This document shows positions 56,084 to 61,297 of a stretch of DNA of 64,000 nucleotides, piece by piece. The DNA lies in IMG/VR virus record IMGVR_UViG_3300040801_001812, positions 75,527 to 139,526 of that record. The stretch is one strand, 5' to 3'. Source of the DNA: a virus. The notes under the pieces are model-generated. The model saw only the letters and a program-made list of their open reading frames with translations, did no database searches and was not told where the DNA came from. Within the stretch, counting starts at the first letter, position 1. Each line of letters begins with the position of its first letter. The translations under genes and the position numbers were made by a program.

Positions 56084-56393
56084 CCGTGTGTTCCTCGCTT
56101 GCTATCGCGTTGAATAAAGCCAACGACGACTGCCACTTGTGGTTATCGGGGTTAGTCAAATCAATAGCTGCTAGAGATTTAACGGTAAGAGAGGCCACCG
56201 CCTCCGGGTTGAAATAGCGGTCTCCATACATCAGCCCCTGTCCTTCGGGGGCCTGGATGAAGGAATTGTAGGCCATGGCTTCGGCTTCGGTGTGAGTCCC
56301 AGCCGGGAACACATCGACCGCAGCTTCCCTAGAACCCCCAATAAGAACAACTCTGACCAAGACAAGGTAGGCGTATCTGGAGATGTCAGACAT
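55992..56393 (-). CDS. Hypothetical protein
   Basis: Coupled ORF; overlaps the terL start by 92 nt. Confidence 0.6.
   Translation of the reverse strand: MSDISRYAYLVLVRVVLIGGSREAAVDVFPAGTHTEAEAMAYNSFIQAPEGQGLMYGDRYFNPEAVASLTVKSLAAIDLTNPDNHKWQSSLALFNAIASEEHTDGQTEQDRYFKDSTGDAGGRVQQRGRTACR
56113..56118 (-). promoter_or_regulatory. Putative intragenic late promoter for terL
   Basis: GCTTTATTC 30 nt upstream of the terL ATG; same 9-mer as at 53994. Confidence 0.5.
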
Positions 56394-57896: not shown

Positions 57897-58435
57897 CACA
57901 CACCCCTTTCTGCCAGCCCCTCTTGAATAGCGGTAACGACCATACTCAAAATGCGCTGACGTTGATTGCTGGGCAGAGAAAGGAGCTTGTTCAAGAACTG
58001 CTCCTGGCCTTCCTTGGTAATCCCTTCGGTCAAAGTCTCAGCCGCGCCGAAGGTGTCCTTCATGTTCGCGGTGATCATGCCGATAGCATCCTTAGAAGCC
58101 GTCATGTTATTGATGATCTCGATCTTGTTCTTGATCGCCTGATTGAGTGCCGAGACAGCCCGGATCTTCTCACCAGTAGATGCTTCAGCTAGATCTTCTG
58201 TATCCAAAATCTCAACGGTAGCATCAAGCGCATCGAAGTAGTGGGTGAGCTGGGTAATCCGGTCTACCACCATGCTCACATAGAGGAGCTGAACGTAAAC
58301 CTGATGAGCGCGGATGACGTTATCAGCCAACTCAATCAGCTCGGGGTCTACCTCTTCTCCACTAGATACGGCCATGTACAGCTCCGTAGTGAGCTGCTGG
58401 GCCATGGAAATCTCGGTGTTATCCATCTGAATCAT
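57896..58435 (-). CDS. Helical hypothetical protein (possible terminase small subunit, unverified)
   Basis: GGGAG SD; all-helical, 179 aa; upstream of terL. Confidence 0.5.
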   Translation of the reverse strand: MIQMDNTEISMAQQLTTELYMAVSSGEEVDPELIELADNVIRAHQVYVQLLYVSMVVDRITQLTHYFDALDATVEILDTEDLAEASTGEKIRAVSALNQAIKNKIEIINNMTASKDAIGMITANMKDTFGAAETLTEGITKEGQEQFLNKLLSLPSNQRQRILSMVVTAIQEGLAERGV

Positions 58436-58679
58436 GTGAACTCCCTCGGGCCACTATATCACCCACCTTAGGCAGCTTGATAGTATGACCCCCAAAATAC
58501 CTGATGAGCGTTTCAAACGTATGAGGCCCGAGCACCGAGATCAACTCGGGGATCAGGCTCTCGTCCTCTCCCACAGCAGCGTAATACCCGTCCAGTACCT
58601 CGGGAGTGAGCTTGTCGAGGTTATCTGCGATGTCTATTAGCTCCTTGAAAATAGGGGGCAAAATACTGGGTTCGTTCAT
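58419..58679 (-). CDS. Mor/C transcription-activator-like N-terminal domain protein
   Basis: ELISVLG...FETLIRYFGGHTIKLP resembles the Mor GG..[IV].[IL]P motif; no HTH follows. Confidence 0.55.
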   Translation of the reverse strand: MNEPSILPPIFKELIDIADNLDKLTPEVLDGYYAAVGEDESLIPELISVLGPHTFETLIRYFGGHTIKLPKVGDIVARGSSHDSDG

Positions 58680-58833
58680 GTAGCAAAAACTGCACCCCAG
58701 GTGCGTACGTGGCTATAGGGAAGCTCCGTGAGTATTTGATGTTGGCCAGTGCAAAAACTGGTCGAAGTTCTAGTATCGGAGCAACGATCTAAAGCCAACC
58801 ACAACACCTGGGGCACACTCCATTTCTTCGCTG

Positions 58834-59580
58834 CTAGGCATAGCCTAGGTCTCCGTCAAACATAGCGTTCTCTTCCGCACCGATCCCGATAATATCCATG
58901 TGGTAGTCGTTTGTTTCGGGTTTACGGGTGCGCAAAACAAGGAACGCTTGGGTGAGAATGAACGTACAATACTCCATCATGAAGTTCCGGTTGGAGCACC
59001 CCATGAGCTGAAGAACGGACTTGGCAATTTCACGCCCTTGGATCATCTGAGCCAAGATGTACACGCACACACGGCGCATCTTACCCTCAAACCGTACGTA
59101 GCTAACAGCGATACCAAAGAGCTGCTTGGGGAGCCTCTTCAGCGTTAGTTCAGCTTCCACCTCGTAGATATTCTGTACAGTAGACGTCTCAGGCTCCGTG
59201 TGCATCTCAGTGATACGCTTCTGGAGCTTGTTGTGTTTACCGTGCAGAACATCATACTCACGGTAGAAAGCATTCACCACGCAGGTGAACAGATACCGCA
59301 TGTATTTCTGATGGCTATTCAGCTTTTCGATCTCCTTATCAGCCATCTTAGGGATAGCTTTGGTGATCGTATAAGCAGCGTGGGAGATGAGGTCGTCCTC
59401 ATCTCCCATGTATGTGACTTTGAATTTTTGAGTGGAGTAAACCACCCGGATGATGGGCAAGGCGAGTACAATGGCCTCGTCTAACTTCGCATCGGTCTGG
59501 TCAGCTCGGTAGGCGTCAAACGCGGCGTACGCGTCTTTCTGCTTCCACCAGCCAAGACTACTGAACCAACCTGACGACAT
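58834..59580 (-). CDS. Phage sigma-factor-like protein (gp55 / late sigma-like)
   Basis: Region-2-like EDDLISHA..TITKAI.K...YLFTCVVNAFYR; 248 aa; GGAGG SD. Confidence 0.65.
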   Translation of the reverse strand: MSSGWFSSLGWWKQKDAYAAFDAYRADQTDAKLDEAIVLALPIIRVVYSTQKFKVTYMGDEDDLISHAAYTITKAIPKMADKEIEKLNSHQKYMRYLFTCVVNAFYREYDVLHGKHNKLQKRITEMHTEPETSTVQNIYEVEAELTLKRLPKQLFGIAVSYVRFEGKMRRVCVYILAQMIQGREIAKSVLQLMGCSNRNFMMEYCTFILTQAFLVLRTRKPETNDYHMDIIGIGAEENAMFDGDLGYA

Positions 59581-59597
59581 ACACCCTCCATCCCCAC

Positions 59598-59613
59598 ATA
59601 CTATATCTTGTGG
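59598..59613. promoter_or_regulatory. NrdR-box-like operator 1 (covers the -10 element)
   Basis: ATACTATATCTTGTGG vs consensus acaCwAtATaTwGtgt: 13/16, all core positions match. Confidence 0.7.
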
Positions 59614-59629
59614 TGACGAAGAGTGTCAA
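59600..59629 (-). promoter_or_regulatory. Sigma70-type promoter of the sigma-like gene
   Basis: TTGACA (59629-59624), 18-bp spacer, TATAGT (59605-59600). Confidence 0.8.
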
Positions 59630-59645
59630 CAACTAAATGTGGTGG
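59630..59645. promoter_or_regulatory. NrdR-box-like operator 2 (abuts the -35 element)
   Basis: CAACTAAATGTGGTGG; core C.A.AT.T.G kept; starts 32 bp from box 1. Confidence 0.6.
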
Positions 59646-59650
59646 TCAAA

Positions 59651-59914
59651 CTACTTACCTAAATGATGCCGTGTCTCTTTTAGCCAGCGGTTCAGGGTGC
59701 CATCCGGTACCGAAACCGACCCCGTGCTCTGATAAACGGAGAGCATGTCGTAGGCACGACGGAGAAGTGACTTGGTGATAGCCACCTCGACAGCCTTACA
59801 GACAAAATCCCCCGGTTCCCGTTCGTGGTGCATAGGGATCTCCCTTTCGAGAGGGATCTTGAACATGACCTTCACGCCCTTTTTCTTAACACGGTCAATG
59901 AAACCCTTGAGCAT
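59651..59914 (-). CDS. Hypothetical protein
   Basis: GGAGG SD; 87 aa. Confidence 0.65.
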   Translation of the reverse strand: MLKGFIDRVKKKGVKVMFKIPLEREIPMHHEREPGDFVCKAVEVAITKSLLRRAYDMLSVYQSTGSVSVPDGTLNRWLKETRHHLGK

Positions 59915-59929
59915 AATCCCTCCAAAGGG

Positions 59930-59952
59930 AAAAAGGGGGTCTACAGACCCCC
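59930..59952 (-). terminator. Intrinsic terminator
   Basis: GGGGGTC-TGTA-GACCCCC followed by TTTTT. Confidence 0.8.
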
Positions 59953-60432: not shown

Positions 60433-60486
60433 GATATCCTCCTAGAGCCTTATGCCCCTTATGGGGCTATCACTCAACGTACACCT

Positions 60487-60492
60487 AATAAA
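60487..60492 (-). promoter_or_regulatory. Putative late promoter motif
   Basis: TTTATTAGGTGTACGTT, identical to the copy at 44465. Confidence 0.75.
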
Positions 60493-61250: not shown

Positions 61251-61297
61251 CGCACCTCCTGCCACCACATAGTAACCGGAAACCGCGATGGTGTCAA

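Follow-up and report, generated by a model that had tools for sequence, protein, structure and literature searches.

NrdR operators have been described at the promoters of bacterial ribonucleotide reductase (RNR) genes (PMC13584703, PMC9110341, PMC12051234). By the published rules, each box carries six conserved positions (C4, A6, A8, T9, T11, and G13), the stretch between C4 and G13 is at least 63% AT, and two boxes are joined by a linker of 15–16 bp and free sequence, which places their starts 31–32 bp apart (PMC13584703). Box pairs in E. coli and P. aeruginosa were detected at RNR operons only (bioRxiv 10.1101/2025.03.28.645925). Late transcription of phage T4 involves gp55, gp33, and the sliding clamp gp45 (PMC2988020), and in phage Mu, the late genes are gated by C together with the host beta clamp (PMC12867686). 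Phages also borrow host regulators as a readout of cell state, examples being CtrA in alphaproteobacterial phages (PMC9437464) and LexA in GIL01 (PMC4551915).

Here, we analyze a 64,000-nt stretch of DNA (hereafter the window; positions 75,527 to 139,526 of IMG/VR record IMGVR_UViG_3300040801_001812), which represents the late half of a 139.5-kb uncultured phage contig with an estimated completeness of 75%. It contains a predicted NrdR operator that shares with its bacterial counterparts the two 16-bp boxes, the 16-bp linker, all conserved positions, and the overlap with the polymerase site, but differs from them in that it appears to control a sigma factor rather than an RNR. The system resembles T4 in its divergent sigma factor with region 2 similarity, its −10-only late promoters and, in our proposal, the tie between late genes and replication. 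However, the T4 clamp activates a finished holoenzyme, whereas the gate proposed here would act on the synthesis of the sigma factor, through a host metabolite sensor; the phage polymerase is moreover of the family A type, and the sigma factor has an extra helical domain of 90 residues. Matches to the gp45 and gp33 families were absent from three genomes (75–81% complete), in searches in which no positive control gave a signal either. Mu likewise employs a host replication-linked factor to gate its late genes, but does so through protein–protein activation by the clamp with sigma70 retained, in contrast to the repression by a dNTP sensor that we propose. As in the CtrA and LexA cases, a host regulator would be borrowed to read cell state, with the difference that the signal would be the dATP/ATP ratio and the target a master late regulator. 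Among titles and abstracts on NrdR in connection with phages, prophages, late genes, or titration, none reports NrdR control of phage late genes.

A predicted NrdR operator overlaps the promoter of a sigma-like gene

The minus strand of the window carries a T4-like portal and terminase (Pfam, PHROG), and the phage encodes a family A polymerase, a primase, a helicase, an SSB, UvsX, and an SbcC-like subunit. RNR, NrdD, ATP-cone, and NrdR sequences were not found in its genome; because the assembly is 75% complete, an RNR or a clamp could sit in the missing part. RNR, NrdD, and full NrdR were likewise not found in two relatives of 176 and 168 kb. The features of the locus are as follows:

56111–56118, minus strand: late-promoter motif lying 35 nt ahead of the gene for the terminase large subunit, a putative example target of the sigma factor, at the same place in several relatives
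58419–58679, minus strand: 86-aa ORF, weakly like a fragment of a Mor/C late activator (phrog_836, E 0.008)
58687–58821, minus strand: covarying rod-like RNA between the sigma stop and the next gene (17 of 45 pairs covary, 5 sequences)
58834–59580, minus strand: very likely a sigma70-family protein, 248 aa, probable late sigma; region 2 fold at about residues 1–115, helical C-terminal domain
59584–59589, minus strand: Shine–Dalgarno sequence of the sigma gene, read from the sequence
59598–59613, no strand assigned: predicted NrdR box over the −10 hexamer (17.7 bits, the best single box of the genome)
59600–59629, minus strand: sigma70-type promoter TTGACA-N18-TATAGT, read from the sequence; promoter type kept in 28 of 31 family loci
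59630–59645, no strand assigned: predicted NrdR box abutting the −35 hexamer (11.4 bits, 6 of 6 core positions)
59651–59914, minus strand: 87-aa ORF between terminator and promoter, without a Pfam or PHROG match
59930–59952, minus strand: intrinsic terminator-like hairpin, probably leaky, conserved in box-clade loci
60485–60492, minus strand: upstream late-promoter motif TTTATTAG, kept near −900 in box-clade loci

A preliminary description had placed a promoter overlaid by two 16-mers in the 70-bp gap before the sigma-like gene, and both elements are present as described. TTGACA (59629–59624) and TATAGT (59605–59600) are separated by an 18-nt spacer and match the consensus hexamers at 11 of 12 letters. 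One box (59598–59613) covers the −10 hexamer and the other (59630–59645) abuts the −35 hexamer; their starts lie 32 bp apart, leaving a linker of 16 bp, within the NrdR rule. Each box contains all six conserved NrdR positions (12 of 12 over the pair), with an AT content between C4 and G13 of 75 and 88%, and the pair overlaps the RNA polymerase binding site, as in NrdR operators. In the −10 box, the core positions T9, T11, and G13 double as letters of the −10 hexamer. With a matrix built from nine experimentally bound boxes, the scoring that the preliminary description had proposed gave 29.1 bits for the pair, compared with 12.9 for the next-best pair in the 139.5-kb genome and a maximum of 22.3 over 40 order-4 Markov genomes. 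The box pair is not a chance occurrence and is very likely an NrdR operator. Also as described before, the controlled operon lacks an RNR gene: in place of the RNR operon of the canonical NrdR regulon, the genes downstream of the operator are those for the sigma factor, small ORFs, the terminase, and the portal. A second sigma70-type promoter, without NrdR boxes, lies within the late region at 61268–61297 (minus strand).

Phage repressors commonly act at palindromic operators that overlie promoters, and with a quarter of the genome missing, a phage-encoded protein, for example the adjacent 87-aa protein, might bind the boxes in place of host NrdR. We regard this as highly improbable, given that all 12 core positions and the spacing match NrdR and that the site is the only one in the genome; the 87-aa ORF matches no DNA-binding family and is deleted in one relative (L010) in which the boxes remain intact, and no NrdR gene was found in the phage.

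The 87-aa ORF has its own ribosome binding site and is kept in eight of the nine box-clade loci; no promoter was found for it. This bears on the hairpin upstream, which had been regarded as a shield of the region from upstream late transcription. The hairpin itself is present, with a stem at 59952–59935 followed by a T run, and is conserved in box-clade loci; full shielding is doubtful, and the terminator is probably leaky, because a conserved ORF without a detectable promoter comes directly after it. Read-through from the late promoter at 60492 past such a terminator could feed the sigma gene and create positive feedback.

Downstream of the sigma gene, both sides have changed in 17 of the 45 pairs of the rod-like RNA across five sequences. 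This RNA has no Rfam match and is absent from two relatives (L027 and L028); the ribosome site of the next gene may be masked by its 3′ arm. That gene is the 86-aa ORF, whose phrog_836 match covers residues 44–74 only; it resembles just the N-terminal dimerisation part of Mor/C activators.

The 248-aa protein resembles sigma factors in region 2

The predicted structure of the 248-aa protein is all-helical (pLDDT 79). In agreement with the sigma-like assignment made earlier, T4 gp55 heads the VIA list (Z 10.9, rmsd 4.9, 125 residues aligned), a Z that for a helical fold is not decisive alone; sigma factors occupy almost all of the top 30 rows, and many sigma region 2 chains score between Z 7.5 and 10.9. 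Foldseek concurs weakly, with all matches above E 0.04 and none under E 0.001 in the PDB. A profile that includes distant homologues retrieves a Streptomyces sigma factor (E 8e-8), followed by FliA, SigE, and SigK, and covers region 1.2–2. Neither the protein nor an alignment of its close homologues retrieved a sigma family from Pfam, PHROG, or the PDB sequences, so that only structure and the deeper profile reveal one.

The similarity to gp55 is structural: identity in the structural alignment is 11%, no gp55 match was obtained in Pfam or PHROG, and gp55 is absent from the PDB-sequence profile searches. The C-terminal domain gives only scattered matches to region 4 (Z 4–5.5), several region 4 domains at Z 4.4–5.5 standing among unrelated helical folds, and has no Foldseek or sequence match. 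Taken together, the gene in all likelihood encodes a sigma70-family protein that does not belong to the gp55 family by sequence.

Late promoters carry a −10-only motif

The motif TTTATTAG occurs in seven coding-strand copies, compared with 0.24 expected. TTTATT has 20 of its 22 copies in the late half, many of them 8–90 nt before structural genes and the terminase. No conserved −35 element was seen at these motifs, indicating −10-only late promoters, and the motif holds its positions across the family, including members without boxes. The T4 late motif is TATAAATA and differs from TTTATT. Since the late promoters consist of a −10-only TTTATT motif, a non-host sigma factor is needed, and the 248-aa protein, whose gene sits among the late genes, is the obvious candidate to read them. 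It is probably the late sigma factor of the phage.

Conservation of the box pair among relatives

The sigma-like protein has sixty homologues, every one of them from uncultured sequence; none was found in bacterial genomes or annotated phages, and thus no cultured relative is available. Thirty-one loci with upstream DNA form the conservation set. At the same place, the box pair scores 18.7–33.3 bits in nine of them and 13.4 bits or less in the other 22. Conservation upstream of homologues, to which the preliminary description had pointed as a check, therefore holds among close relatives and not farther out: the pair is intact in seven loci including this one (77–100% protein identity), the relatives among them standing at 77–89%, degenerate in two, and absent in the 22 farther relatives. 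In the two degenerate loci (L027 and L028), which are the deepest with boxes (66–68% identity), the critical C4 of the upstream box is gone, and NrdR binding is hence doubtful. Both also carry inteins, in the portal (L027:11215–14331) and in the terminase (L028:13319–16621), respectively.

Within the box clade, the core of the −10 box is complete (6 of 6) in eight of nine loci and has 5 of 6 positions in L034. Core positions of the upstream box are 96% conserved, compared with 54% for the linker (eight loci), and whole boxes are 80–86% conserved against the same 54%. No promoter element accounts for the core positions of the upstream box. The TTGACA-type promoter is retained in 28 of the 31 family loci, boxed or box-less, and in 15 box-less relatives that were compared and share this promoter, both boxes together never occur at those offsets. 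We therefore reject the explanation that the conservation reflects the promoter only, as these box-less relatives retain the promoter without the boxes. Because most box-less relatives do so, the boxes either came onto a promoter that was already in place or disappeared from it. The tree permits a single gain of the pair (92% of bootstrap trees), with low branch support (40/88). Loose box-pair matches elsewhere in box-less relatives were at control level, and the match that was examined, in L079, falls within coding sequence. A distant relative (L022) has a lone NrdR-like box (6 of 6) abutting the −35, 16 bp upstream of its −35 and without a partner, which may be a relic or chance.

As 22 of the 31 loci have no pair, the family works without it. 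Such patchy presence fits a lifestyle trait and could suggest that the site reads the state of the host instead of timing the lytic cycle: the late genes would be kept off and lysis deferred while the host is not replicating and its NrdR is loaded with dATP and active. When DNA synthesis stops and dNTP levels go up, NrdR binds to DNA (PMC13584703), and CtrA sites have been proposed to act in this manner in alphaproteobacterial phages (PMC9437464). We consider such a role unlikely as the main function; once the phage replicates, it merges into the replication-gated explanation.

The same geometry occurs at bacterial RNR promoters

We searched GTDB with the phage promoter/box geometry as a fixed pattern and obtained 29 matches. 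Sixteen lie upstream of the class II RNR NrdJ (NCBIfam confirms three, and the remainder have the N-terminus in common), one precedes nrdD, one represents an nrdJ promoter copied in truncated form (probable nrdJ), and six more stand beside divergent genes taken as RNRs by eye. The geometry thus appears to be a good predictor of NrdR sites. Most matches come from Thermoanaerobaculia (Acidobacteriota), in whose nrdJ promoters the offsets of the boxes to the −35 and −10 are identical to those of the phage; five such genomes all encode NrdR. We treat Thermoanaerobaculia as a lead to a possible host only: the geometry is present in just 11 of 351 genomes of the group, and none of the 351 has CRISPR spacers to the 20 kb of the window that were compared.

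The resemblance also allows the site to be viewed as a captured or look-alike nrdJ promoter, used for its strength with the boxes as passengers; over 47 bp, the phage promoter shares 85% identity with the nrdJ promoter of one Thermoanaerobaculia genome, although that genome was picked by the pattern and the identity is not independent. Alternatively, the sigma factor might have a middle or host-takeover role, in keeping with a C-terminal domain that shows no clear region 4. Either possibility strikes us as very unlikely, since the box cores are conserved where linker and flanks have drifted, the sigma gene is surrounded by late genes, and a sigma factor other than the host's is required for the late motif.

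Some bacterial pairs stand beside other genes. A Sideroxydans genome (L066:5426–5467) has an NrdR pair with the same promoter geometry upstream of a CBASS-type-looking operon (a small ORF, a patatin-like and a nucleotidyltransferase-like gene, by eye), a defence that may be induced by dNTP depletion. In two Anaerolineae genomes (L048:3193–3234 and L062:685–726), an NrdR-like pair lies beside cell-division genes as judged by eye, in the latter between ftsQ-like and ftsA-like ORFs.

NrdR box pairs in other phages

In IMG/VR, the strict paired-box pattern is found in at least 120 and at least 109 stretches at the two NrdR spacings (at least 229), compared with 4 at an out-of-phase spacing. The matches listed yield 124 dereplicated first downstream genes, of which Pfam assigns 15–17 to packaging or head functions and 3 to RNRs; among 124 other gap-preceded genes of the same loci, packaging or head genes number 4, at most 7. 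Over that range of counts, the Fisher p value runs from 0.005 to 0.12, with most genes unannotated, and the enrichment of packaging and head genes behind NrdR pairs is suggestive, not settled. Hand-picked near-perfect pairs lie 3–53 nt before genes for terminase small and large subunits, portals, a head–tail protein, and an HNH protein in unrelated phages (loci L110, L092, L106, L153, L045, L176, and L098). No other sigma factor of the 248-aa family was found behind box pairs among the matches listed.

Other pairs precede antirepressors and genes without assigned function, and late control is hence not the sole use of NrdR pairs. In five temperate phages (L201, L227, L240, L255, and L284), pairs lie between divergent genes in the cro/antirepressor region, where NrdR may feed the lysis–lysogeny switch. 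As a general proposition, we put it at only slightly better than even that host NrdR serves as a checkpoint on replication in many phages, either via a late sigma factor or directly at terminase and portal promoters.

A proposed replication gate on late gene expression

In the mechanism that we propose, host sigma70 RNA polymerase would transcribe the late sigma gene from its strong promoter, and host NrdR would keep it off early in infection. As no RNR was found, phage replication would draw on host dNTPs; in E. coli, extra replication forks make dNTPs limiting (PMC12075136). Replication would then lower dATP and open the promoter. By a second route to the same switch, genome copies, each with one operator, would come to outnumber NrdR, and this titration would induce host RNR too. 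Once the promoter is open, late sigma would be made and the structural and packaging genes behind TTTATT promoters would fire. We infer NrdR binding in the host, the recognition of TTTATT by the sigma factor, and the timing of these steps.

The sequence-level checks all speak in favour of the NrdR-gated late sigma of the preliminary description, and we hold it fairly likely that host NrdR gates the gene until replication lowers dATP or titrates NrdR away. Against such a gate, breakdown of host DNA could keep dATP high. Titration might also be the main purpose of the operator, drawing NrdR off the host nrdJ promoter and raising the dNTP supply, with control of the sigma gene incidental. In keeping with this, no RNR was found in three large family genomes; however, the genome has a single pair, placed precisely over a regulator's promoter, where a decoy need not be, and we find this distinctly unlikely.

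The NrdR proteins of E. coli and Streptomyces recognise one another's boxes (PMC13584703), and the replication gate is therefore testable with existing reagents. If true, dNTP-depleting defences or hydroxyurea could fire the late genes early. Next to the clamp mechanisms of T4 and Mu, the gate would constitute a third type of coupling between replication and late expression, and the paired-box NrdR regulon would extend beyond ribonucleotide reductases and be common on phage packaging operons. NrdR on the promoter of a late sigma gene would offer a simple answer to how phages without a clamp-type system delay late expression until replication.
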